Below, piece by piece: positions 60-25,985 of a DNA stretch of 62,865 nt. The stretch is from an uncultured virus (IMG/VR IMGVR_UViG_3300032117_000008) (taxonomy: Duplodnaviria > Heunggongvirae > Uroviricota > Caudoviricetes), in IMG/VR virus record IMGVR_UViG_3300032117_000008. One strand, 5' to 3'. Position 1 is the stretch's first letter, and the number at the start of each line of letters is the position of its first letter. The notes below the pieces were generated by a model. It ran no database searches and was not told the origin of the DNA. It saw only the letters and a list, made by a program, of their open reading frames with translations. Position numbers and translations under genes: made by a program.

Positions 60-1373
60 TCATCCAAAAAAATCCTCCAACGTTGATCTTTGTTCTGCTT
101 CCCAACCAATAACATCGGTTATAGACTTCAATGGTTCCAAAAACGATTTATTGAATTGCATATCACGATCTATATAATTATCAAGGTTAAATTGTTCGGG
201 TAATAGATCAGAAGTCGCGATAACTGTGTCTTGAACGGGATTAGGTATCTTCAAATATGCAAATCTAATTTTATCTCCATCAGAAAGAGGAGGTATATTC
301 GTAATATTATGCTTTTTGAGCATATTATTGAATAATAGAGCTCCCTTAACCTGAATTGGAGTTCCTTTCTTGTAGATATCAGCGGAATCTTTATACTTGT
401 TTATTCCTTTCAATCCTCTTGGAAAAGCTACATCCTGAAACGGTAAAGAAGCAAATTCATTTCTAAATTCCTCAATGAATTTTTGTAGAGAAGCTTGATC
501 CTCGTTCATTATTATACTAAGAGCTTTCTTAATATTTTCGCGGCAAGCATGTGGTGTTGAAGAACGAACAGCTTCAATACCAGACAATTTCAACTTGGGC
601 TTATCATATTGAACACCTTCAACATTCCAAGCGTTAAGAATATACATCTTCTTACCACGCCAAATACCTTTGTTGGCAATGGTTTCACGCTTCATCTGCA
701 TCTTCTGCTGATAAGCATTCATCATTCCAGCAAGTTCGTCATAACAAATATCAAGATATGGTTGAATCTTTTTTTCGCAGAATTGATCGATCAACTTAAC
801 AGCTTTAAGCTCATCGCTGCCTTCAGGAATCAGTCGTTCAAATGTAACATAGATAGAATCAGTATCAGAAGCGATAACGTAATCAACATTTTCAGTCTTA
901 CAAATCTTATTCATAAACTGATTCATCTTATTGATAATAAATTTAATTGTTAATTGACCTGACGAAGTAATAGATTCTGCATTATCAAAGTTAAACCAAC
1001 GAAAATACATATTAGACAAGGCTCCATAAAAGCTGTTGAGTTGAATTTTTTTGGCCATTTGGAGATTATTATATCTAGAAACTAATTTTTCATCTTCCTT
1101 GCTTTTGGTTTTTTCATATCTTTTTTTAGTCTCAATCATCAATTTTTTATATTTCGACCTGTCATCGAACATTTTTTGCATAAGCGCCGTTGCAAAACCA
1201 TGAGAATCATTTTTATATAAACAACCGTTTGCAGTCAAAGAATAACCTTCTATTTTTGGCGTCGTTTTATTTTTAAATATAAAAGAGTTATCATAAGATT
1301 CAGGTCGAATGTCATCTAACATTTTTTCCAGAGTATACAATTCTTCATCAGTTAAATTTTCTAAAATGTTCAT
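60..1373 (-). CDS. 43: Family B DNA polymerase, C-terminal half (gp43B)
   Basis: Motif B KKIQLNSFYG, motif C ASDTDS, KKMY, GIEAVRSSTP, and a C-terminal clamp-binding peptide LEDFFG. Confidence 0.95.
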   Translation of the reverse strand: MNILENLTDEELYTLEKMLDDIRPESYDNSFIFKNKTTPKIEGYSLTANGCLYKNDSHGFATALMQKMFDDRSKYKKLMIETKKRYEKTKSKEDEKLVSRYNNLQMAKKIQLNSFYGALSNMYFRWFNFDNAESITSSGQLTIKFIINKMNQFMNKICKTENVDYVIASDTDSIYVTFERLIPEGSDELKAVKLIDQFCEKKIQPYLDICYDELAGMMNAYQQKMQMKRETIANKGIWRGKKMYILNAWNVEGVQYDKPKLKLSGIEAVRSSTPHACRENIKKALSIIMNEDQASLQKFIEEFRNEFASLPFQDVAFPRGLKGINKYKDSADIYKKGTPIQVKGALLFNNMLKKHNITNIPPLSDGDKIRFAYLKIPNPVQDTVIATSDLLPEQFNLDNYIDRDMQFNKSFLEPLKSITDVIGWEAEQRSTLEDFFG

Positions 1374-2016
1374 TTCTCCACCTAATTGCTCTAGTTACAT
1401 TAGAATTTATTCGACCATCTTTAGCGTAATAATTCTGTTTAGATAACCAATTATTAAATTCTTCTTCGCTCATATTGATATATTTGTATTTGGTCTTTTT
1501 TCTTTGTTCAGATATTTTTTCTAACTTTTCTTTTGAACATGGTGCAGATAATCTATTTTTGGGATAATTTATTTTCATACCCGTCTTTTTTTCTCTCATT
1601 TTTTCTATACCTTTTAGTATAGTTTTTCTATCTGCACCGAAATAAGCCTTTCCAATCATATCAACTCGTTTTTTACCTTTTTTAGATTCAACGACTGCAG
1701 TTCTAGCCGATTCATATAGATAAGAATTATTGAAAATTTTTTGTCTATACGTATCACCTTTTCCATAAATCATCCAATGAAAAGCCATGGCCATTTTCCT
1801 AGTTTTTTCGTCTTCTGATCCATAACGTTTACGAAATATTTTCCATAAAAGTTTATGAGAAATGTAATGTTCTCTTAAAGTTAAAGGAACTACGAAATCA
1901 TTTGGACCATAAATTGACACGGGAAAAACATGATGATATTCGTATAATTTTCTGTCTATTTCTTTTCTATTTTTCGCTCTTCTTATAATTAAAATATATT
2001 TCTTTAAATAATTCAT
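1348..2016 (-). mobile_element. Free-standing HNH homing endonuclease inserted between the two polymerase halves
   Basis: YEYHHVFPVS...LTLREHYISHKLL HNH signature, basic C-terminal region, AT-rich, own late promoter. Confidence 0.85.
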
Positions 2017-2044
2017 AAATTTACTCCATTTAAAGAGTATTTAG
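2017..2044 (-). promoter_or_regulatory. Late promoter (CTAAATA) plus hairpin hiding the SD of the HNH gene
   Basis: CTAAATA at 2044-2038; TACTCT-ttaaat-GGAGTA stem covers GGAG. Confidence 0.6.
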
Positions 2045-3306
2045 GTCAAACCGCGTCTTTTCTTCTCTCTTTCAATCATTTCTTTTAATGTTTTTTTGTT
2101 TATCATTTTTTCGGGGCTAATATTATATTGTTGAATTAAACTTGGGTATAGAGATGTTAAATCAAAAGAAACAACCCACCTACTCAAACCAATCTTTGGT
2201 TCCTTGACGTATCCACCAACCAAACTATCAAAATTAGATTGTTTCTTGAACTGAGGAATAACAATACCTTGATCAAGTAGATAATTATGAATAATAACAT
2301 CCCAAGGACGCACAGTTGTCATTGTATCATTGTAATTTACCTTGGCGTCATATGCCAAAGCCATTACTTGTTCAAGAAACTTCATTTTATCGTCAAGACG
2401 TTCAACCAGAACGCAGTCATGAATATTATATTCAATAAACTTTTGAAAGTCGTCTCTATAGAATGTTAGGAAGTTTTTATGTTCTGAGTGATCAATTTTC
2501 TTTTCGCCCAATTCAATCTGAGCAATATAATCGAGTTTATAAGATTCCTGATTACCAAATGTAAATTTACGATACAATTGATAATAATCAAGAACAGCTA
2601 TGCCAGCGGGAGTGAAACTTTGATTTTCCTTACCACGAAATTCGACGGTCTTTTCATCAAGAATAAACCAAGGCGAAAGACGCTTTGCTTCCTTTTCATT
2701 GAACAGAACACGAATACGATTAACCAAATATGGAATGTCGAAAAATTCTATATTCCAACCAGTAACAATATCTAGGTCAAGAGACATCCAACAAGACAAA
2801 AACTTCTGAAGTAATTCGTGTTCGTCTTGACATTGAATATAGAAAGTTTTATTGTCCTTCGGAGTAAACTTACCACAGCCAAAGACAAAGTTTTTATTAT
2901 TAAATCTCACTGTTATGGCTGTGATTTCTTTGTCCGCTTTTTGAATATCAGGAAATCCTTCATCAGCGGCGCACTCGATATCAAGAATGCCAATCTTAAC
3001 CAGATTAGGATCGTAATCAATATCACCTTTGAACGTGTCGTAGATGAAAGTATAAACGAATGAATTAAGCCCGTATATTTCCATATTCGCTACATCTTCA
3101 TAACGATTAACGAAATCACGAGCATCTGAAATATCATCGAACATCATCTTCTCAACGGGTCTACCATCAAGAGTTTTATATTTACCATTACTTTTTTGAA
3201 TAAACATATAAGGTTTGTAGTTGACGACTTCTTTAACTCTCAAACCTTTATCGTAACCTTGGTAATAAATTCTATTACCACGCTGAAAAACACTAGTGTA
3301 AAACAT
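2041..3306 (-). CDS. 43: Family B DNA polymerase, N-terminal half (gp43A: exonuclease + motif A)
   Basis: ExoI LDIEC, ExoII GWNIEFFDIPY, ExoIII YNIHD, motif A SFDLTSLYPS..YNISPE; similarity ends there and a short basic tail follows. Confidence 0.95.
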   Translation of the reverse strand: MFYTSVFQRGNRIYYQGYDKGLRVKEVVNYKPYMFIQKSNGKYKTLDGRPVEKMMFDDISDARDFVNRYEDVANMEIYGLNSFVYTFIYDTFKGDIDYDPNLVKIGILDIECAADEGFPDIQKADKEITAITVRFNNKNFVFGCGKFTPKDNKTFYIQCQDEHELLQKFLSCWMSLDLDIVTGWNIEFFDIPYLVNRIRVLFNEKEAKRLSPWFILDEKTVEFRGKENQSFTPAGIAVLDYYQLYRKFTFGNQESYKLDYIAQIELGEKKIDHSEHKNFLTFYRDDFQKFIEYNIHDCVLVERLDDKMKFLEQVMALAYDAKVNYNDTMTTVRPWDVIIHNYLLDQGIVIPQFKKQSNFDSLVGGYVKEPKIGLSRWVVSFDLTSLYPSLIQQYNISPEKMINKKTLKEMIEREKKRRGLT

Positions 3307-3358
3307 CAAATCTCCTTTTGCAATCCGGCCAAAATTAGCCCACAGATGCTAATAATAT

Positions 3359-4332: not shown

Positions 4333-4367
4333 AACAATCTCCTAGTAAAAATCTAAGAGTATTTATT
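4333..4367 (-). promoter_or_regulatory. Late promoter (AATAAATA) plus SD-sequestering hairpin of the endolysin
   Basis: AATAAATA at 4367-4360 followed by CTCTTAG-N7-CTAGGAG. Confidence 0.7.
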
Positions 4368-4536
4368 CACTTTCCTTCATCATTGATTTATGAACGATAT
4401 GATAAATTTCGTATCTATTGATACCCATATCAGCCAATTCTCTATCAGATAGATTATTAAGTTCAGATATGGCTCTATTAAATCTTACTATCTTTAATAA
4501 GTTTTCTACTATGTAATTAAAATAATTATAGAACAT
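4363..4536 (-). CDS. DUF1127 small protein
   Basis: ELNNLSDRELADMGINRYEI motif; ATG 4536 with AAAGGA SD. Confidence 0.8.
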   Translation of the reverse strand: MFYNYFNYIVENLLKIVRFNRAISELNNLSDRELADMGINRYEIYHIVHKSMMKESE

Positions 4537-4555
4537 TTGTTTTCCTTTCAAACGC

Positions 4556-4582
4556 AAAAAAGGGAGGGTTTGCCACCCTCCC
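4556..4582 (-). terminator. Rho-independent terminator after hsp20
   Basis: GGGAGGGT-ggcaa-ACCCTCCC followed by a T-tract on the minus strand. Confidence 0.75.
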
Positions 4583-4604
4583 AGAAGTAATATGTAATAT
4601 TCAA

Positions 4605-5045
4605 TCATTTTTCGATTGGAATATTCATAAGTTTCTTTGCTTCAATCATTGCGTCCAATGTAATTTGAAGCATACCGTTAATATACTTTGCATTATTAAC
4701 AGTAACGTTGTCGTTCAACGTAAACTTACGTTCAAAAGGCTTTTCGGAAATGCCCTTGTAAAGATAATCATCGGTTTTCTTATCATCTTGGTTCAATTTA
4801 CCTTTGACAATAAGCTGATTGTCTTCAAGAGTAACACTTAGTGCACTTTCAGGGAAACCAGCAACAGCGATTTCAATTTCGTACTTTTTTTCTGAAAGTT
4901 TCTTAATGTTGTATGGGGGATAACTTGTTGATATTGTATTCGCAATATCCTTATGAACCTTTTGTAGTGTGTCAAAAAGACGATCAGAACCTACAAAATA
5001 TTTGTCCATATCAACGAATTTAAAATTAGTCCATGGGTTAGTCAT
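4605..5045 (-). CDS. hsp20: Small heat shock protein (Hsp20/IbpA-like)
   Basis: SYPPYNI, IEIAVAGF, YLYKGIS..FERKFTL, NGMLQI alpha-crystallin motifs. Confidence 0.92.
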   Translation of the reverse strand: MTNPWTNFKFVDMDKYFVGSDRLFDTLQKVHKDIANTISTSYPPYNIKKLSEKKYEIEIAVAGFPESALSVTLEDNQLIVKGKLNQDDKKTDDYLYKGISEKPFERKFTLNDNVTVNNAKYINGMLQITLDAMIEAKKLMNIPIEK

Positions 5046-8388: not shown

Positions 8389-9342
8389 TCAAGTACGAAT
8401 TTCCGGAGGAATAAAGCTCTTTTTATCCATTCCCCAAGTCCAAGCTTGTGCCTCAAGCGCAGTCTTCATTTCCGGAGGAACCGGAAGAGCAAACTCACGC
8501 TTGGTGCCGCAAAGAACATGAAGGAACTTTTCTTTGCCAATGTCCGGAATGTTGACCTCGATCAATTCGCCAATTTCAGGATCGCCGTCCTTGTCGATAA
8601 CCTTACCCTTCAACTGACGAATAACGTTAGCCCAACCAAGGATTTCCATCGCACAACGACGCTGCTCGATGTTGGCCCACTTGATGGCAATCGTCGGAGT
8701 AAGGCTAGCCTTATCCTCAATCCATTCAGAAGGAACGTGAACGCCATGCCAGCAATAGACCGAGAAACCATCACGATAACGGATCGAAGGACCGTCTTCA
8801 CAATGCAAACGGTTTTCGTTGTCACGCTTGAGAATTTCAGGACGATCAGTGATGATAGCAATGTCCTTATACGCCCAAAACCAACCAGCGGACTTGGTAA
8901 CACGAGTCAGAGGCTCAAGCTTCTTCGTACAATCAAGACCACAAACACGATCAAAGAAGTTGTAGAAAGAAATCCAACCAGCGTCATGCTGACCATAACC
9001 GGAAGCGTGGATATAGTTCTTAACAGTCTTCTTCTCTTTAAGAACTTCAACTTCGGCGTTAACAGCTTCGGTAAATTCCTTGGGCTCAAGGTTACCATAC
9101 TTCTTCATGAACTTCTTGTCATTAAGAACATTGGCAGCGATACAGCCCTCGTAAGGCGAAGCAAAATGGAAGATGATCTTCGGCGGATCAAGACCGACAA
9201 CAACATAAGCGTCGTTCAGACCTTCATCAGCAGTCTTCCAATCGGCGGGTTCAGTAGACAATCCGTAAGCGATAAACTCGTCACGAATAACAGGAATCAT
9301 GGCTTCCTGCTCAGGCGTAAGCTTCTCAATCTTGTCAGTCAT
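8389..9342 (-). CDS. DUF6745-domain protein
   Basis: GQHDAGW, GWFWAY..IAIITDRP, RLHCEDGPSIRYRDGF..Y.WHGV, NIEQRR. Confidence 0.8.
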   Translation of the reverse strand: MTDKIEKLTPEQEAMIPVIRDEFIAYGLSTEPADWKTADEGLNDAYVVVGLDPPKIIFHFASPYEGCIAANVLNDKKFMKKYGNLEPKEFTEAVNAEVEVLKEKKTVKNYIHASGYGQHDAGWISFYNFFDRVCGLDCTKKLEPLTRVTKSAGWFWAYKDIAIITDRPEILKRDNENRLHCEDGPSIRYRDGFSVYCWHGVHVPSEWIEDKASLTPTIAIKWANIEQRRCAMEILGWANVIRQLKGKVIDKDGDPEIGELIEVNIPDIGKEKFLHVLCGTKREFALPVPPEMKTALEAQAWTWGMDKKSFIPPEIRT

Positions 9343-9415
9343 ATTTTAGTTCTCTTTCACAGTTTCAATAATAAGATTATAGCTCGGGTTCATTTTAAAG
9401 TCAACTGATATTAGA

Positions 9416-9682
9416 TCACTCGAAACACTCCTGATCGTAAACAGGACGACCAAAGCGATCATAACCGATCAGACATTCGACTGGCGGTCGCTGGTTATTA
9501 AGAATAATTGCCCCAACGATACCAAGGCCAAGTAGACCGGCACCGATACCAATGTTACGACCGTAATGACGATCAAATTGGCGACCAACCGGATGACCAA
9601 CTCTTGGACCAAAGTGATGACCAGCATAAGAAGGCGAAATAGTGGCAAAAATAATTGCCGATGCGATAAGAATATTTTTCAT
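9416..9682 (-). CDS. Small secreted/membrane protein
   Basis: Signal peptide ending SYA and a Gly-rich hydrophobic segment. Confidence 0.6.
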   Translation of the reverse strand: MKNILIASAIIFATISPSYAGHHFGPRVGHPVGRQFDRHYGRNIGIGAGLLGLGIVGAIILNNQRPPVECLIGYDRFGRPVYDQECFE

Positions 9683-9909
9683 TTATTGACCCCGAACAAA
9701 ACCCAGTGAAAAAGCGAAATTCCTAGAAACATAAGAAAAATTATCACCATAGTTGCCGGAATCGCAAAAGCATAACTAAAAAAGTTATTCATGGGGTCTT
9801 TTCTATCTTGTTCATCTAAAAAAATAGTATATATAAATTTATGAACAAAATAGTAAACAAAGAACGGAACACAAGCAACAATAGCTCTCGCAAGAATGTC
9901 CATTATCAA
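9679..9909 (-). CDS. Two-TM membrane protein
   Basis: Two hydrophobic stretches; GAGGG SD. Confidence 0.55.
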   Translation of the reverse strand: MIMDILARAIVACVPFFVYYFVHKFIYTIFLDEQDRKDPMNNFFSYAFAIPATMVIIFLMFLGISLFHWVLFGVNK

Positions 9910-10011
9910 ACCCTCTCAAACAAGAATACACGAAATTCAGTATTGGTCAACCAGTAACCAACTTCCCAAAGATTGCTCAGAACATTATAACGCTTGATCA
10001 TTATTCTTCTG

Positions 10012-10206
10012 CTATGCTCGAACCACAGTCGGTGTTCCCACAACAGTTACGCCATTCTTTGAAGTCCCACGAATCTGACGTGCAAACTCAACCGCCTCAA
10101 GAAAGCTATCAAACGTAGACTTACGCTCGATAATCAATCCATAAAGCGAAGGTGTATTAACGTCAAGATGTTTGACGGTATAGAGTACCTTGTGTTTATC
10201 TTTCAT
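10012..10206 (-). CDS. Early hypothetical protein
   Basis: AAGGAG SD directly after an early promoter. Confidence 0.65.
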   Translation of the reverse strand: MKDKHKVLYTVKHLDVNTPSLYGLIIERKSTFDSFLEAVEFARQIRGTSKNGVTVVGTPTVVRA

Positions 10207-10253
10207 GTCAGACTCCTTTTATTTTATAATGATACCTTATTCATTTTTTAAAG

Positions 10254-10346
10254 TCAATCGAAAAATGCTCTAAAGAAAATAAAAACAAAAATGACAATAG
10301 GCAACCAGAAGATATATAAAAGAGCCTTTACGTCATCCTTGTTCAT
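10254..10346 (-). CDS. 30-aa single-TM micro-protein (not in ORF track)
   Basis: MNKDDVKALLYIFWLPIVIFVFIFFRAFFD; stop codon lies inside the next -35 element. Confidence 0.5.
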   Translation of the reverse strand: MNKDDVKALLYIFWLPIVIFVFIFFRAFFD

Positions 10347-10455
10347 CCTTCTTACCTTTTCTAGTATAAGAGCCTTTTCCCTTTTTGCTCTTGACGATCC
10401 TTTGTTTATATAGGCCAGAAGCAAGAACTTTGGCCATAGGATTATGTTTATGCAT
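10333..10455 (-). CDS. arfA: ArfA-like alternative ribosome-rescue peptide, 40 aa (not in ORF track)
   Basis: MHKHNPMAKVLASGLYKQRIVKSKKGKGSYTRKGKKDEQG matches the ArfA core L(F/Y)xQRxxxxKKGKGSYxRK; GGAG SD. Confidence 0.75.
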   Translation of the reverse strand: MHKHNPMAKVLASGLYKQRIVKSKKGKGSYTRKGKKDEQG

Positions 10456-10483
10456 CGACCTACTCTCCGACCTACGTTGTTAC

Positions 10484-10651
10484 CTACAGAATATCAACCA
10501 CTCGACCGCTCTGATCAACGGCGCGAACACGATAATTAGGATACCTTGAAGACAATTGCTTCATTGCCTGGACAATATACATAGAATTGTTCAGCGTCGT
10601 CTGATAGGTTACCCAATTACCAGTACCTTGCTGCAGCTGAATATTGATCAT
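10484..10651 (-). CDS. 55-aa hypothetical protein (not in ORF track)
   Basis: MINIQLQQGTGNW...RVRAVDQSGRVVDIL; ATGA overlap with the upstream ORF. Confidence 0.55.
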   Translation of the reverse strand: MINIQLQQGTGNWVTYQTTLNNSMYIVQAMKQLSSRYPNYRVRAVDQSGRVVDIL

Positions 10652-10809
10652 GATTCATTTCCATGATGTTGAAGTTTATCCAAACATTCTTGTTTAGTCT
10701 TAAATGGTCCTACTATCATTACGATATGACCGTCAACAGACTCCAAACCAAACCACATACCCCAAGTACTTGGGCTGTTATCATCAAAATCTTGCCATGT
10801 TCTTATCAT
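10648..10809 (-). CDS. 53-aa hypothetical protein (not in ORF track)
   Basis: MIRTWQDFDD...GPFKTKQEC; AGGAG SD. Confidence 0.5.
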   Translation of the reverse strand: MIRTWQDFDDNSPSTWGMWFGLESVDGHIVMIVGPFKTKQECLDKLQHHGNES

Positions 10810-10836
10810 GACCTATCTCCTGACCTAGCTATAGAC

Positions 10837-11142
10837 CTACTGTTCGTTAACAGAAAGATGAGCGAAGCAATCAGAAACTCGCTCATCACCATCAAAATAG
10901 AACACCCAATCACCAAGCTCTTGTCGGTATTCCTTATTGATATACTCAAAACCACCGTAATACTGAAGAGTACGATCGTTGCTTATGTCAACCACAATTG
11001 TTGTACGATCTTCATCAACGTACAAACAATAACCAGCTCTTGAATCCAATCCAAGATCAGAAGCCTTGACATGATCAAGCTTTTGAACGTACCTCTCAAC
11101 CTTATCGTTTATTGCTTCGACGAAATCGTAACCAGCCAACAT
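10837..11142 (-). CDS. Early hypothetical protein
   Basis: Own promoter and AAGGA SD; LQYYGGFEY motif. Confidence 0.65.
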   Translation of the reverse strand: MLAGYDFVEAINDKVERYVQKLDHVKASDLGLDSRAGYCLYVDEDRTTIVVDISNDRTLQYYGGFEYINKEYRQELGDWVFYFDGDERVSDCFAHLSVNEQ

Positions 11143-11209
11143 GCATGTTTTCCTTTATTTCACAGACCACATATTGATTATACCGGAGTTATTTTTAAAA
11201 GTCAAGCGG

Positions 11210-11503
11210 CTAGCCGAAGAAATTCTCATATTCCTCGTCGGTCATGAGCTTTTCGCAATACATCCAGAGATCACCATCCTGCCAAAGGTTCCAACGATTA
11301 CCTTTGCTGTCGACAAAGTAAATAGAATTCGTCACCGAATCCCAGGATTCCCAATACCATTCCGCATCGGGTCCCTCTAGAAGAGTTTCAATATCCGAGG
11401 GATTATAACCTTCCCAGGACTTACCAGCGTTAACAATTTCAGCGAAATCGCGAGGGATATAGACGCCACGATTATCAGAGAGGATAAGTTCGATACCAGA
11501 CAT
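11210..11503 (-). CDS. Early acidic hypothetical protein
   Basis: Own promoter and SD; RGVYIP..F, EWYWESW, QDGDLW. Confidence 0.7.
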   Translation of the reverse strand: MSGIELILSDNRGVYIPRDFAEIVNAGKSWEGYNPSDIETLLEGPDAEWYWESWDSVTNSIYFVDSKGNRWNLWQDGDLWMYCEKLMTDEEYENFFG

Positions 11504-11565
11504 TTGTTTGCTCCTTCATTTCAACTTATAACTCATTATAGCGCTGATTTGTTTTAAAAACAAAT

Positions 11566-11844
11566 TCAAAATTTGCGATGGCGAACAATGTCCCATTTCA
11601 CAACAGACCAAGAACCATCATCACGCTCATCAACGATTACGTGAGCAACGTTGCCTTTCACAAGAGCCAAGCGCGTCTCGCCAAGAGGGCCGACATAAAT
11701 CTTATGTGGGAATACTACGTTGCGTCCGCCATGAGCAGGCGGAGAAAGAATCATCTCATCGGCAGCAGCGTAATCAAAAACTTTTCCACAAGTTTTCTCT
11801 ATGAAGTAGCCAAGAGTCTTTTCGACGGCGGGCGCATTAGCCAT
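11566..11844 (-). CDS. Early hypothetical protein
   Basis: First leftward gene, with promoter cassette and AAGGAG SD. Confidence 0.7.
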   Translation of the reverse strand: MANAPAVEKTLGYFIEKTCGKVFDYAAADEMILSPPAHGGRNVVFPHKIYVGPLGETRLALVKGNVAHVIVDERDDGSWSVVKWDIVRHRKF

Positions 11845-11912
11845 TTTAGTTCTCCTTCAACCAACCTTATAAATCATTATAGCGCGGAAAAGTTTTAAAA
11901 ACAAGCGCCCTA

Positions 11913-11967
11913 ATTGACGGAAAAAAAGAGTGAAATGTGGTATTTGACGTAAAAATTAAGTGAAATA
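11913..11967. repeat. Two tandem dyad sites TTGAC-N11-GTGAAAT between divergent promoters
   Basis: Copies at 11914-11936 and 11944-11966 (30-bp period); further copies at 15746-15768 and, inverted, 18015-18037. Confidence 0.75.
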
Positions 11968-12030
11968 CGCCGCTTGTTTTTAAAACCATATGAGGGTATT
12001 ATTGGTTATAAGGTTGATAAGGGAAACGAA

Positions 12031-12555
12031 ATGATCAACGTCGAAAAGGAACTCGCATTCCTAGATCTCGCCACCGACATTCTCAAATACACGCGCTCGG
12101 AAAGAGCCTTTATTCGCGAATGGATCAATAAGGGACACGAATTCAGCGGTAGAATTTGGGAAGAGCTCATCGAAAAGCTCGCTCGCACCAAGTTTAATGA
12201 CACAGCCCACATGGATTTCACTGATGGGACTGAGGCCAAGACTGCGAGCACTCGTCTTTATAAAAAGAAAGAAGGGTCTACCGGAATTGTTGGCCAGATA
12301 ACCAATGTGGCCGGCAAGACCGGATACATTCGCGTCGCTTGCTATAACAACCATAGCAAGAAGATTGACTTCTTTGTTCTTCCTCCAAACCACGACGTAA
12401 CTATTCGTTTCGCTAAAAGTCAAGGTAATAAAGGCTGCATACAGTTTTCTTATAGTAGAAAAGATGACACTTATTCGGCTAACCTTGAGAAATATCGCGT
12501 TAAGAACATCAAGGAATGTTGTAAGCAGTTTAGATATCTGAAGCTGGTCGCTTGA
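12031..12555 (+). CDS. Early protein, possible PD-(D/E)xK nuclease fold
   Basis: E in GRIWEEL and DFTDGTEAK motif; own promoter. Confidence 0.5.
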   Translation: MINVEKELAFLDLATDILKYTRSERAFIREWINKGHEFSGRIWEELIEKLARTKFNDTAHMDFTDGTEAKTASTRLYKKKEGSTGIVGQITNVAGKTGYIRVACYNNHSKKIDFFVLPPNHDVTIRFAKSQGNKGCIQFSYSRKDDTYSANLEKYRVKNIKECCKQFRYLKLVA

Positions 12556-12631
12556 TTTTTTGGGCGACTCCGTTGATTTTAAAACGTTTCCGGGGTATTA
12601 TTGATTATAAGATTGGATGAAAGGAAACGAA

Positions 12632-12853
12632 ATGGCTAATATGTCTTATTGTCGGTTCGAAAACACTCTTCGCGATCTCCAAGATTGCTTGAACGTTCTC
12701 GACGAGGCTTGTGAGGACGATAAGTCTTTGGAAGATTTCGAGAAATCTCTTGGTTCCGATTACGAACGTCGGGCTTTCAAGAGCCTCTTGACAGTCGCCG
12801 AGGAACTTTTGATGATTGCCGATCGAATGGCGAACGCTGAAAACGAGGCTTGA
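12632..12853 (+). CDS. Early acidic hypothetical protein
   Basis: MANMSYCRFENTLRDLQDC N-terminus recurrent in phages. Confidence 0.7.
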   Translation: MANMSYCRFENTLRDLQDCLNVLDEACEDDKSLEDFEKSLGSDYERRAFKSLLTVAEELLMIADRMANAENEA

Positions 12854-12909
12854 TTTTAAAACGTTCCCGCGCTATAATGAGTTATAACTGAATCAAACAG
12901 GAGTTCAAT

Positions 12910-13761
12910 ATGCCCCGTGGTGTTTACGACCGTTCCGCCGCTCGCGCTGCTCGCACCGAGAAGTTCACGGCCATCAAGGTCAATTATGATAATCAGCCGC
13001 ACGAAACCGACGAGCAGATCGATGCGCGCATTTCCGAGCGTTTCGAGATTCTCGATGTTCTGACCGAAGCTTGTACGGTCGGCAACGCTCGCGCTCTTAT
13101 CGTTTCCGGCCCTGCCGGTCTTGGCAAGAGCTTCACTGTCGAGAAACGTTTGAACGAGTGGGACCCCAACGAGATCAACCACACGATCGTCAAGGGCTAT
13201 GTTCGCGCCACCGGTCTCGTCAAGCTTCTGTATCAATATCGCGAAGAGGGTCAGGTCATTGTTTTTGATGATGCCGACTCTATCTTCTATGATGATATCT
13301 CTCTCAATCTTCTCAAGGCGGTTTGCGACACGACCGAGCGTCGTCGTGTTTCTTGGTTGAGTGAGGGCAAGCTTATCGACGACGAGAGCGCCGATCTTAT
13401 CCCGCGTTCTTTCAACTTCAACGGCACGATCATCTTCATCACGAATATGGACTTTGACGCGATGATCGATCGTGGCCATAAGCTGGCGCCTCATCTTCAG
13501 GCTCTGGTTTCTCGTTCGCACTACATTGATCTTTCTATGAAGACGCGCCGCGATTATCTTGTTCGCATCAAGCAGGTCATCAAGCAGGGTTTGCTCAACC
13601 ATTTGAATGGCGTTGAACGTCATGAGGTTATTGAGTTCATTAACTCCAATCACGAGCGTCTCCGTGAGTTGTCGCTGCGCGTTGCTCTGAAGATTGGTGC
13701 TCTTCGCAAGCAAGGCGCTAACTGGCAGAAGATGGCTAAGATTACCTGCTGCCGCAATTAA
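12910..13761 (+). CDS. P-loop AAA-type ATPase
   Basis: Walker A GPAGLGKS, Walker B VIVFDDAD, sensor IFITN, SR finger. Confidence 0.85.
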   Translation: MPRGVYDRSAARAARTEKFTAIKVNYDNQPHETDEQIDARISERFEILDVLTEACTVGNARALIVSGPAGLGKSFTVEKRLNEWDPNEINHTIVKGYVRATGLVKLLYQYREEGQVIVFDDADSIFYDDISLNLLKAVCDTTERRRVSWLSEGKLIDDESADLIPRSFNFNGTIIFITNMDFDAMIDRGHKLAPHLQALVSRSHYIDLSMKTRRDYLVRIKQVIKQGLLNHLNGVERHEVIEFINSNHERLRELSLRVALKIGALRKQGANWQKMAKITCCRN

Positions 13762-20647: not shown

Positions 20648-20708
20648 TGATTATACCGACTATTGAATAAAAGGTCAAGCGTTATTTTGAACTACATTGG
20701 AGATTATT

Positions 20709-21230
20709 ATGAACGACAGTAAGTTACAGCGTATTATTTTTATTGATATTGATGGTCCTATTATCAATACTCCTTGTTTTTATATCGATCCGATGTGTTC
20801 GATGAACCGTTCGGTTATGAATACGCAGGCTATCGGTTACGTCAATCGTCTTGCTCAAATCGTCGACGCCAAAATTGTTACAAACTCAAGTCACAATTCT
20901 TATTTGGTTGAGAATATTTTGACGCCCGAGAAACGCGATTTGAGGCAAGACCTGATCAAATGGGGTATGAAAGAGGATTTGTTTCATACTGTTTGGCGTA
21001 CAGGATTTCCTGATAACGCAAAATTCAATGCCAATTGGCATAGAAGGATGGATGCAATCGAGGATTGGCAAGAGGCTAATGGCGAGTGTGATTGGATTTG
21101 TTTCGATGATGATAAATTTACTTCTAGAAAGAATTTAATTGTCATCGATTTTGAAACTGGTATTGATCATGCTGCGTATAGGAAGGCGGGGAAATTTTGG
21201 GGTATTAGAAAAGAGCCCATCATTTATTGA
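20709..21230 (+). CDS. HAD-superfamily protein (Swiss Army Knife RNA-repair-like)
   Basis: IIFIDIDGP, IVTNSS, WICFDDD motifs. Confidence 0.75.
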   Translation: MNDSKLQRIIFIDIDGPIINTPCFYIDPMCSMNRSVMNTQAIGYVNRLAQIVDAKIVTNSSHNSYLVENILTPEKRDLRQDLIKWGMKEDLFHTVWRTGFPDNAKFNANWHRRMDAIEDWQEANGECDWICFDDDKFTSRKNLIVIDFETGIDHAAYRKAGKFWGIRKEPIIY

Positions 21231-24543: not shown

Positions 24544-25668
24544 ATGGCTCGTCGTCAACCACTTATCGCTAATCGCAAACAGAAAGCTCCTCGCGTTTCT
24601 CGTTCGGAGCAGTACATCGTCAACTATAAGTATCTCGGCGACGAGCCCCTTTTCGATAAGGTTCCGTCAATTTCGGAATATTCTCAGGCTTTGACTTGGT
24701 ACAATTATATGTGTACCAACGACGAAGCTCGCGGTTATCTTAAAGATTACCTTAAGAGCAAGTCGCGAACCGAGGAATTGAAGAAGCTTAATCGCGTATC
24801 TGATACTTGGGTTTCAACGACCGCTTGTTGGGTCGCGCGTATGATCACTCGTGGTTCTAAGATGCCAGAAACAGCGGGAACTTTCCTTGAAACTAAGATC
24901 AAGGAGATGCTTTCTCGCGCGAAGGTTGAAGAACCTGTTGTTGAAACCGAAGTCAAGAAGCCTACGGTTAAAGAGCGTATTCAGGACAAAGCTTCTGACA
25001 TTATCGGCGATATCGAGGAAATGATTGATTCTGACGTTAAGTTTTCGCTTTACGATTGGATGAAGTCGAAATATATTCCCGCTGTTTACGCTTCTATGAT
25101 TGTAGAGAAGTATACACCATGGCTCGACGAGTTGCTTGAGGCTCTCGAAGGCAACGATAATCAACTTAAAGAGGCTTATCGTTATCTTTCTAAGAAACAA
25201 CTCAAGGAACGAGTTTTGTTCTTTAACTCGTTGATCGAGGACGCCGAACGTTATGGCGCTGTGACTAAAAAGACGCGTAAACCACGTAAGCCTCGCGCTG
25301 TTTCGGTCGAGAAGAAGCTCAAGAACCTTAAGTATCAAAAGGAAGATAAAGAGTTCAAGATCGCTTCGGTCAATCCAGAAAAGATTATTGGCGCTCAAGA
25401 ACTTTGGACGTTCAACACCAAATATAAGACGTTGACCGTACTAAGAGCTCTTGATCGCGGTGGTCTACAAATCAAGGGTACGAGCGTTTTGGGGTACGAT
25501 GAAAACAACTCCGTAACCAAACGTACTGGTCGCAAGCCAGAAGAATACATTAAGAAGGTTTTGGAAGGTGGTAAGATCGTATTGCGTAAGCTTATGGATG
25601 AGTTGAAGAAAGAAGCTTCTTTGGCTTATCGTATAAACGAAAATACTATTCTGCTAAAAATCACTTGA
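24544..25668 (+). CDS. Conserved T4-like hypothetical protein
   Basis: ALTWYNY, SVNPEKIIGAQELWTFNTK.K.L, RINENTILL. Confidence 0.75.
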   Translation: MARRQPLIANRKQKAPRVSRSEQYIVNYKYLGDEPLFDKVPSISEYSQALTWYNYMCTNDEARGYLKDYLKSKSRTEELKKLNRVSDTWVSTTACWVARMITRGSKMPETAGTFLETKIKEMLSRAKVEEPVVETEVKKPTVKERIQDKASDIIGDIEEMIDSDVKFSLYDWMKSKYIPAVYASMIVEKYTPWLDELLEALEGNDNQLKEAYRYLSKKQLKERVLFFNSLIEDAERYGAVTKKTRKPRKPRAVSVEKKLKNLKYQKEDKEFKIASVNPEKIIGAQELWTFNTKYKTLTVLRALDRGGLQIKGTSVLGYDENNSVTKRTGRKPEEYIKKVLEGGKIVLRKLMDELKKEASLAYRINENTILLKIT

Positions 25669-25698
25669 CCTTTTCAGCAGAATAGGGTAATATAAATA
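25665..25698 (+). promoter_or_regulatory. Overlapping sigma70 and late promoters of the RNA operon
   Basis: TTGACC-N17-TAATAT plus TATAAATA at 25691-25698. Confidence 0.7.
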
Positions 25699-25699
25699 T

Positions 25700-25976
25700 G
25701 TTGCTTGGTCGTTGAGGCGTAAAGAATAGATGCTTTGGACGTGGGTGCGAATCCCACCTGGTCCACCACAGATACACCGGGACCGACTCGAAAGAGACTC
25801 CTTAGAAGATGAGGGATTAGGTGTATCTTTGATGGGCCAGAATAGGTTCGACAAGGTATGTCAAGGTTACGAGTAGACTAAGTAAAAACGTTAAATGCAA
25901 ACGATAACAATGCATCTGGTTTCGCCCTAGCGGCGTAACATGAGTCCGGCAGGAACTTGGAAACAGAATCCTGCCA
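25700..25976 (+). ncRNA. ssrA: Circularly permuted two-piece tmRNA
   Basis: T-arm and CTGGTCC-ACCA end at 25768; GGGCCAG-AATAGGTTCGAC starts at 25834; G3:U70 pair; tag ORF 25897-25938 = ANDNNASGFALAA*; terminal GGCAGGA...TCCTGCC stem. Confidence 0.93.
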
Positions 25977-25985
25977 TCTTTTCAT

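Follow-up and report, generated by a model that had tools for sequence, protein, structure and literature searches.

The DNA analysed here, a stretch of 62,865 nucleotides that we refer to as the window, encodes a 40-residue homologue of the ribosome-rescue factor ArfA, called mini-ArfA in the following. Its homology to ArfA is secure and far beyond chance, and to judge from its sequence a known factor is present here in a variant architecture: short, stop-terminated, N-terminally trimmed and carried by a phage. We lean towards the reading that mini-ArfA is a rescue factor that would depend on RF2 and be made independently of tmRNA.

An ArfA-like peptide of 40 residues with a stop codon of its own had been claimed in an earlier note on this DNA, and the corresponding frame was found at 10333..10455, with the translation MHKHNPMAKVLASGLYKQRIVKSKKGKGSYTRKGKKDEQG (40 aa, minus strand) and with the 31-residue string of that note inside it. 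A search with the ArfA family model, proposed there as a check, came out clearly in favour: Pfam PF03889 (ArfA) matches at 43.3 bits (gathering cut-off 25.5; E 2.5e-11), the match spans profile positions 10-43 of 44, and this is the sole Pfam family reported at E<=10. The 40 residues hold no RF-1 domain, ArfA being all that Pfam lists. PHROGs returned phrog_20887, annotated as function unknown (E 1.1e-7), the NCBIfam search gave zero matches, and among PDB chains phmmer found strong matches only to six distinct E. coli ArfA sequences (E 1.1e-6 to 2e-6). The alignment is indeed gapless, as had been claimed, pairing mini-ArfA residues 3-40 with E. coli ArfA 12-49 with 19 of 38 positions identical (counted by hand). 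In a profile-profile comparison of 34 short relatives with 9 long gammaproteobacterial ArfAs, a probability of 98.7% was obtained (E 3.2e-16), mini-ArfA residues 2-40 were aligned to Salmonella ArfA 11-49, and the short-family profile began at column 25 of the 69 in the long-ArfA profile. The parts of the gene lie in the window as follows.

10333..10455, minus strand: mini-ArfA open reading frame (ORF), 40 residues, ATG start and own TGA stop, from the ORF listing and the Pfam ArfA match
10463..10468, minus strand: Shine-Dalgarno-like GGAGAG, 7 nt 5' of the mini-ArfA ATG (ctctcc on the plus strand), read from the sequence
10390..10443, minus strand: front half N5-K22, aligned with ArfA N14-K31, with the helix, the hydrophobic positions and the RF2-pairing strand
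10336..10398, minus strand: basic tail I20-G40 (IVKSKKGKGSYTRKGKKDEQG), aligned with ArfA V29-G49

The TGA stop is codon 41 of the frame (10333-10335, tca on the plus strand). An in-frame stop stands 8 codons before the ATG, with no alternative start codon in between, and the gene 5' of mini-ArfA ends 28 nt away, within a series of small minus-strand genes. The nearest upstream promoter-like site in a consensus scan of 9300-12100 is located at 11205-11177, although the 7 such sites in this interval, against 7.7 expected, represent no excess over chance. The DNA is real, since metagenome contigs from 4/4 freshwater runs agree with it over 10000-10900 with zero letter differences, three of the runs through one spanning contig each and the fourth through two pieces with a gap. 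As no microdiversity is present over 10000-10900 in the contigs of these 4 runs, no selection signal is readable there. The 20 runs with this stretch are DNA metagenomes from lake water or freshwater, and no RNA run with it was found among 23 runs. In another frame, the ATG of a strongly hydrophobic 30-codon ORF (MNKDDVKALLYIFWLPIVIFVFIFFRAFFD; 10254-10346, minus strand) overlaps the last codons of mini-ArfA; it has zero Pfam matches, and may encode a coupled small membrane protein.

Comparison to structurally characterized ArfA indicates which parts have been kept. In the E. coli protein, L19, L24 and F25 contact RF2 at W319, V198 and F217, the RF2 sheet is extended by a strand formed by Q27-E30, and the basic C-terminus fills the mRNA channel (PMC8012679, PMC5378476). 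Mini-ArfA has V10, L15 and Y16 at the L19, L24 and F25 positions, thus keeping an aromatic residue at the last of these, and at the sequence level Q18-R19-I20-V21 aligns with the RF2-pairing strand. From K22 onwards, according to the alignment, it is the counterpart of the segment that occupies the empty mRNA channel, KKGKGSY.RKGK being identical in the two proteins. This portion, KSKKGKGSYTRKGKKDEQG, aligns to ArfA 31-49, so that at the sequence level it extends past the Asn47 equivalent, and the last residue falls at position 49. Demo et al. 2017, citing Chadani 2011, report that ArfA cut at Asn47 works and that cuts after Met40 fail (PMC5378476). The earlier claim that the peptide stops just after the active core consequently holds for the location of the stop, at the position-49 equivalent and past the functional Asn47 truncation. 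That the core is active is an assumption, because residues 1-11 are absent and a lysine occupies the Ala18-aligned position.

These two differences concern the part of ArfA linked to RF2 activation. Residues 1-14/16 are disordered as long as RF2 is closed and fold to a minidomain when RF2 opens, with residues 1-11 folding back onto the decoding centre and Ala18 packing against Ile11 and C1914; the A18T variant retains binding and RF2 recruitment and has lost activation and release (PMC8012679, PMC5378476). Mini-ArfA starts just two residues before the K12-aligned position, and thereby lacks the N-terminal minidomain (ArfA residues 2-16, with Ala18 packed on Ile11); the hydrophobic C-terminal tail is missing as well. 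Based on the alignment to E. coli ArfA, the parts for RF2 recruitment and ribosome docking thus appear to be present and the activating N-terminal segment absent. Among the 34 short relatives (alignment A3), A8, V21, K25, G26, G28, S29 and R32 do not vary, N5, L11 and R19 reach a conservation of 90% or more, and the RF2-contacting strand and the aromatic residue are likewise conserved. The L19- and L24-aligned positions are mostly Asp/Glu and Lys across these relatives, hence the hydrophobic patch of E. coli ArfA is not shared by the whole family. A complex prediction of the A3 peptide with Caulobacter RF2 (RF2_CAUVC) as a stand-in for the host protein gave, as a run without controls, a score of 0.22, below the mark of 0.32, which speaks neither for nor against the pairing.

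The stop codon bears on how the peptide would be controlled. In bacteria, the arfA message is either cleaved within the ORF or ends there by termination, and tmRNA removes the product (PMC8012679). For mini-ArfA, the fold of 120 nt around the 3' end gives z +0.61 against shuffled sequences, i.e. no hairpin, and the fold of 251 nt at the gene (z -1.37) contains nothing comparable to the arfA hairpin, whereas the known long hairpin was recovered from the Salmonella arfA positive control (131 nt, z -4.03). No terminator-like site was called inside the mini-ArfA ORF in the scan of 9300-12100. Short copies elsewhere behave likewise (Cr30 z +0.96, one Pelagibacter copy z +1.28). In long phage ArfAs with hydrophobic tails, in contrast, the RKG codons lead straight into a hairpin within the ORF, in most cases with a U run behind it:

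L040, 3090-3230: long-tailed ArfA, in-ORF hairpin, z -4.73
L004, 2585-2720: Citromicrobium phage RXM ArfA, in-ORF hairpin, z -1.94
L049, 3085-3225: long-tailed ArfA, in-ORF hairpin, z -1.57
L002, 2590-2720: Ochrobactrum phage OC ArfA, in-ORF hairpin, z -1.27, weak

With hairpins in the long-tailed copies and none in the short ones, phages hold both a non-stop and a stop-terminated design, and the stop codon of the latter stands about where the former would truncate its message. Escape from tmRNA-coupled control, as suggested in the earlier note, is therefore a reasonable inference from the own TGA and the lack of any sign of a non-stop design, and the production of mini-ArfA probably escapes the control that tmRNA usually exerts. 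The word constitutive, also used there, is apt in the sense of tmRNA independence, but too strong otherwise, as the gene would still be under the phage transcription programme.

The window belongs to a T4-like myovirus of lake or freshwater. It encodes gp32, the gp59 helicase loader, a late-transcription coactivator and a family-B DNA polymerase, together with gp5/gp6/gp25/gp53/gp8-like baseplate proteins. A 1218-residue tail protein is 40% identical to its counterpart in Caulobacter phage Cr30, the next-best matches being from phages of Ochrobactrum, Rhizobium and Sinorhizobium. Since related phages infect Alphaproteobacteria and the runs are freshwater metagenomes, the host is probably a freshwater alphaproteobacterium. 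When the phage tmRNA was compared by BLAST with 401 alphaproteobacterial genomes, the only matches were conserved stretches of 25-53 nt, in 34/401 genomes. This tmRNA is located as follows.

25661..25977, plus strand: two-piece (permuted, alpha-type) tmRNA, Rfam RF01849 at 79.8 bits and RF04321 at 95.9 bits

The tag read by ARAGORN is ANDNNASGFALAA, and two tRNAs are also found in the window. A fixed kit of tmRNA plus ArfA was considered and rejected, as alpha-type tmRNA occurs in 2/5 ArfA-bearing phage genomes, one of them above cut-off; the Cr30 genome has no alpha-type tmRNA match. SmpB was matched in 0/5 related viral records, which are fragments of 18-47% estimated completeness. A megablast of 9000-13000 against the phage collection gave no near-identical record, the nearest one (G001) being a 36-kb fragment without an ArfA match. 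The family-B DNA polymerase is spread over two minus-strand ORFs, 2041-3309 (exonuclease and start of the polymerase) and 60-1373 (the rest of the polymerase), with a 222-residue ORF without a Pfam family at 1348-2016 between them, so that the polymerase gene at 60-3309 looks split or interrupted. A HAD domain of the 'Swiss Army Knife' RNA-repair type is found at 20697-21230 on the plus strand (E 3e-10). Accessory genes among 4605-5045, 4363-4608 and 8389-9342, all on the minus strand, encode Hsp20 small heat-shock, DUF1127 and DUF6745 proteins.

Mini-ArfA is one of many short ArfA-like peptides that end at a stop codon of their own and together form a large clade. In the phage collection, tblastn matched 27 records, many of them weakly (E 0.1-0.8) and mostly from phages of Alphaproteobacteria: eight Brevundimonas and seven Sinorhizobium matches, Cr30 twice, and single matches to Ochrobactrum, Roseobacter, Citromicrobium, Erythrobacter and Pelagibacter phages. 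The others comprise Ralstonia and Microcystis phages and three Salmonella records, at least two of which are bacterial contigs. A word-index protein search, insensitive for mini-ArfA, recovered one relative among three candidates. In IMG/VR, 307 of 534 matches to a pattern derived from a narrow 5-sequence alignment encode a relative, and the identical peptide is present on five contigs. At most 21 residues follow KGKGS[YF] in 57 of the best 80 viral loci, 22-50 in 3 and more than 50 in 20. A profile search of 1.84 billion cluster representatives gave 1039 matches at E<=0.001 and 113 at E<=1e-10; 91 of the best 150 of the 1039 are at most 55 residues long.

Some viral copies are built differently. 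In many marine viral contigs (L023, L032, L038, L042, L072-L078, L080-L089) the ArfA core sits inside proteins of 120-142 residues with a conserved C-terminal domain (...NYTKP.MRKRLF..IKAGGKGGAPGQWSARKAQ...) without a Pfam match, and pelagiphage-type copies bear an N-terminal MPGKWDGRSR... extension. In Cr30 (L001, KF301602.1, about 11142-11240), an unannotated ArfA-like ORF ends right after RKGK, overlapping the end of the upstream gene and lying between two annotated RNA ligase genes. To call the peptide hidden, as the earlier note does, is an overstatement, because phage ArfA genes already carry this annotation in several GenBank phage entries and appear by name in two papers. The paper on Citromicrobium phage RXM mentions ArfA at the level of annotation (PMC8953757), and gp30 of pelagiphage HTVC027P is reported to reach high expression both at early and at late times of infection (PMC12753301). 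The full-text literature outside subscription journals yielded no study of how a phage ArfA functions; two DRT2 papers that name ArfA (PMC11100668, PMC12039810) were set aside, since they are about host ArfA.

The same short build also occurs in cells. At least 415 relatives were found among the 600 pattern matches listed from a species-genome collection, and 66 of the best 80 are titled Pelagibacter-type genomes (L093-L171, e.g. L101:3001-3105, L122:2986-3105 and L103). Among 35 of these best 80 loci that were examined, the Pelagibacter-type frames have about 35-45 codons and mostly end 4-8 residues after the core; one SAR11 example scores 23.2 bits with PF03889, under the 25.5 cut-off. Two Pelagibacter-type loci that were compared have an identical ORF layout, and the Pfam neighbours at L122, the locus so analysed, are a response regulator, a PfkB kinase, an HhH-GPD glycosylase (nth) and DapB. 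The gene is thus chromosomal and does not belong to a prophage. The ArfB model was above cut-off in 0/5 small genomes with short ArfA, in which only release-factor-sized ORFs were matched. Given the syntenic housekeeping setting in SAR11 genomes without ArfB above cut-off, short ArfA looks like a working cellular factor in this one lineage, which phages carry to hosts mostly without it. In an even sample of 401 alphaproteobacterial genomes, PF03889 was found in 10 at E<=0.001, 8 of them above cut-off, and a nucleotide-HMM survey reports arfA in 0/2376 Alphaproteobacteria (PMC11633108). A separate observation concerns marine gammaproteobacterial ArfAs (Photobacterium, Paraglaciecola, Psychromonas, Bermanella and Carnimonas), which have their own stop after ...ESYSMAA, ...ESYLIAA, ...ECYQIAA or ...IALAA (L094, L105, L108, L126, L141, L147, L159 and L166; L097 ends ...ESYLILV). 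Such an ending resembles a gene-encoded version of the ssrA degradation tag, and that it serves as a degron is our guess.

On these grounds, we propose that mini-ArfA would operate as follows. The Lys/Arg/Gly-rich back half (KSKKGKGSYTRKGKK) would enter the empty mRNA channel when a host ribosome has stalled on reaching the 3' end of a broken, stop-less mRNA. The QRIV strand, in conjunction with the hydrophobic positions Y16, L15 and V10, would then recruit host RF2, which would hydrolyse the peptidyl-tRNA, so that the ribosome is recycled and the peptide left untagged. As the gene has its own stop two residues past the shortest E. coli truncation reported to be active and no internal hairpin, mini-ArfA would accumulate regardless of trans-translation, alongside the phage tmRNA. 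The benefit would be that ribosomes are kept available while host and phage mRNAs are cut by phage-induced decay or by RNA-cleaving host defences. Support for this RF2-dependent reading comes from the homology, the kept key residues, the reach of the C-terminus, the lack of a non-stop signal, the ribosome-binding site, the conservation in the family and its size (307 viral matches, 1039 protein clusters), the SAR11 genes and the transcription of gp30. We count against it the absence of residues 1-11, the lysine at the position where A18T kills activation, the lack of a family-wide L19/L24 patch and the fact that ArfA/RF2 pairs are reported to be species-specific (PMC8012679). Moreover, the rarity of ArfA in Alphaproteobacteria, both in our sample (10/401) and in the published survey (0/2376, PMC11633108), puts the RF2 responsiveness of such hosts in question.

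A bolder version of this proposal, which we hold to be unlikely, is that stop-terminated mini-ArfAs form a distinct, always-on class of rescue factors that would activate a release factor without the N-terminal minidomain, imported by phages of mostly ArfA-less bacteria, often beside tmRNA, so that ribosomes keep turning over when mRNAs are cut, also by RNA-cleaving anti-phage defences, which would make it a counter-defence gene; or else that in this phage lineage mini-ArfA is paired with a 78-residue RF-1-domain protein of the phage as an ArfB-like system in two pieces.

The same N-terminal differences could also mean that mini-ArfA is a decoy, which binds non-stop ribosomes and perhaps closed RF2 without release, and thereby blocks SmpB-tmRNA or holds stalled ribosomes. 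The missing residues 1-11 and the lysine at the Ala18-aligned position speak for this, with a precedent in A18T, where binding and RF2 recruitment occur without release, and in the ordering of the N-terminus together with the opening of RF2 (PMC8012679, PMC5378476). However, blocking trans-translation is hard to square with a phage that encodes its own tmRNA, an inhibitor of rescue is unlikely as a syntenic gene of streamlined Pelagibacter without ArfB above cut-off, and the RF2-contacting strand and the aromatic residue have been conserved. We thus judge an inhibitory role improbable.

Alternatively, mini-ArfA may descend from ArfA and yet be a basic peptide that binds ribosomes or RNA for a different purpose, for instance to tune translation or to occupy vacant ribosomes, or it may be functionless in the phage. 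Most of the profile score indeed stems from the short Lys/Gly-rich segment, and the 20/80 viral loci with more than 50 residues after the core, which have an unrelated C-terminal domain, indicate that the module is reused elsewhere. Yet the 35-residue core is conserved throughout, its non-basic part N-P-x-A...L...Y..R-I-V as well, and the match is specific to ArfA; we consider such a change of role distinctly improbable.

Finally, mini-ArfA might sense the empty channel and work with a catalytic protein other than RF2, for example a small RF-1-domain protein encoded by related phages:

L186:2330-2566 (G407), outside the window: mini RF-1 ORF, 78 residues, about 34 kb from the ArfA ORF in near-identical phage relatives

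PF00472 is matched in 2/5 related viral records (E 6e-7 to 1e-6, 24.5 bits, below the 35-bit cut-off), and the L186 ORF matches phrog_20323, 'RF-1 domain peptide chain release factor' (E 1.6e-8). Release factors carry a GGQ motif, at the position of which the mini RF-1 ORF reads TGQ. By translation-based names, this ORF lies between a split nrdA-like gene and a likely nrdB, and the ORF inserted in the former reads as homing-endonuclease-like. As the 74 window ORFs scanned contain no RF-1 match and 0/5 complete ArfA-bearing phage genomes have one at E<=0.01, the mini RF-1 protein was rejected as a general partner, and a non-RF2 partner is very improbable.

Returning to the RF2-dependent reading, ArfA is the textbook factor whose synthesis is tied to the failure of trans-translation, and in mini-ArfA this tie has been removed and the N-terminal activating segment is missing, a short build that recurs as a core-looking gene in SAR11 genomes without ArfB above cut-off. 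If the short form is active, it defines a minimal ArfA, revises the published view of ArfA-less Alphaproteobacteria and implies that phages supply ribosome-rescue capacity of their own along with tmRNA; an inactive short form would represent a naturally occurring rescue inhibitor. We rate the value of this one locus as moderate, since annotations of the gene class already exist for some phages.

Among known systems, BrfA of B. subtilis, ArfT and ArfB work in outline as proposed for mini-ArfA, in that they probe the empty mRNA channel with a basic tail; RF2 recruitment by strand addition is also known for BrfA (PMC8012679). None of the three is matched by mini-ArfA in Pfam, where ArfA alone is listed. 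BrfA, unlike mini-ArfA, is made from a non-stop mRNA, and ArfB (NF006718 / RF-1 domain) combines a basic tail with its own GGQ catalytic domain, which mini-ArfA lacks. The annotated phage ArfAs, i.e. Citromicrobium RXM g10, Ochrobactrum vB_OspM_OC p093, those of Brevundimonas phages (e.g. Kikimora 04590) and HTVC027P gp30, are from phages of Alphaproteobacteria and belong to the same family as mini-ArfA. The Kikimora and Bajun copies, of 36-38 residues, have their own stop as in mini-ArfA, whereas the RXM and OC copies have 60-65 residues, a hydrophobic tail and a hairpin after RKG, as in the non-stop design of bacteria, and gp30 differs through a 24-residue N-terminal extension. The SAR11 ORFs, with their own stop 4-8 residues after KGKGS[YF], are 58-70% identical to mini-ArfA; they are cellular and have Asp/Lys at the L19/L24-aligned positions, in contrast to the phage-borne mini-ArfA, which is hydrophobic there. 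E. coli/Salmonella ArfA (YhdL; PF03889; on the ribosome with RF2 in 5MDV, 5H5U, 5U4I and 5MGP) is homologous to mini-ArfA over residues 12-49. The two share the KKGKGSY.RKGK channel tail, the Q-R-V/I strand and an aromatic residue at F25, but E. coli ArfA has residues 1-11, Ala18, a hydrophobic tail and an in-ORF hairpin, none of which is found in mini-ArfA, and ArfA is a factor of beta- and gammaproteobacteria, whereas mini-ArfA is carried by a phage.
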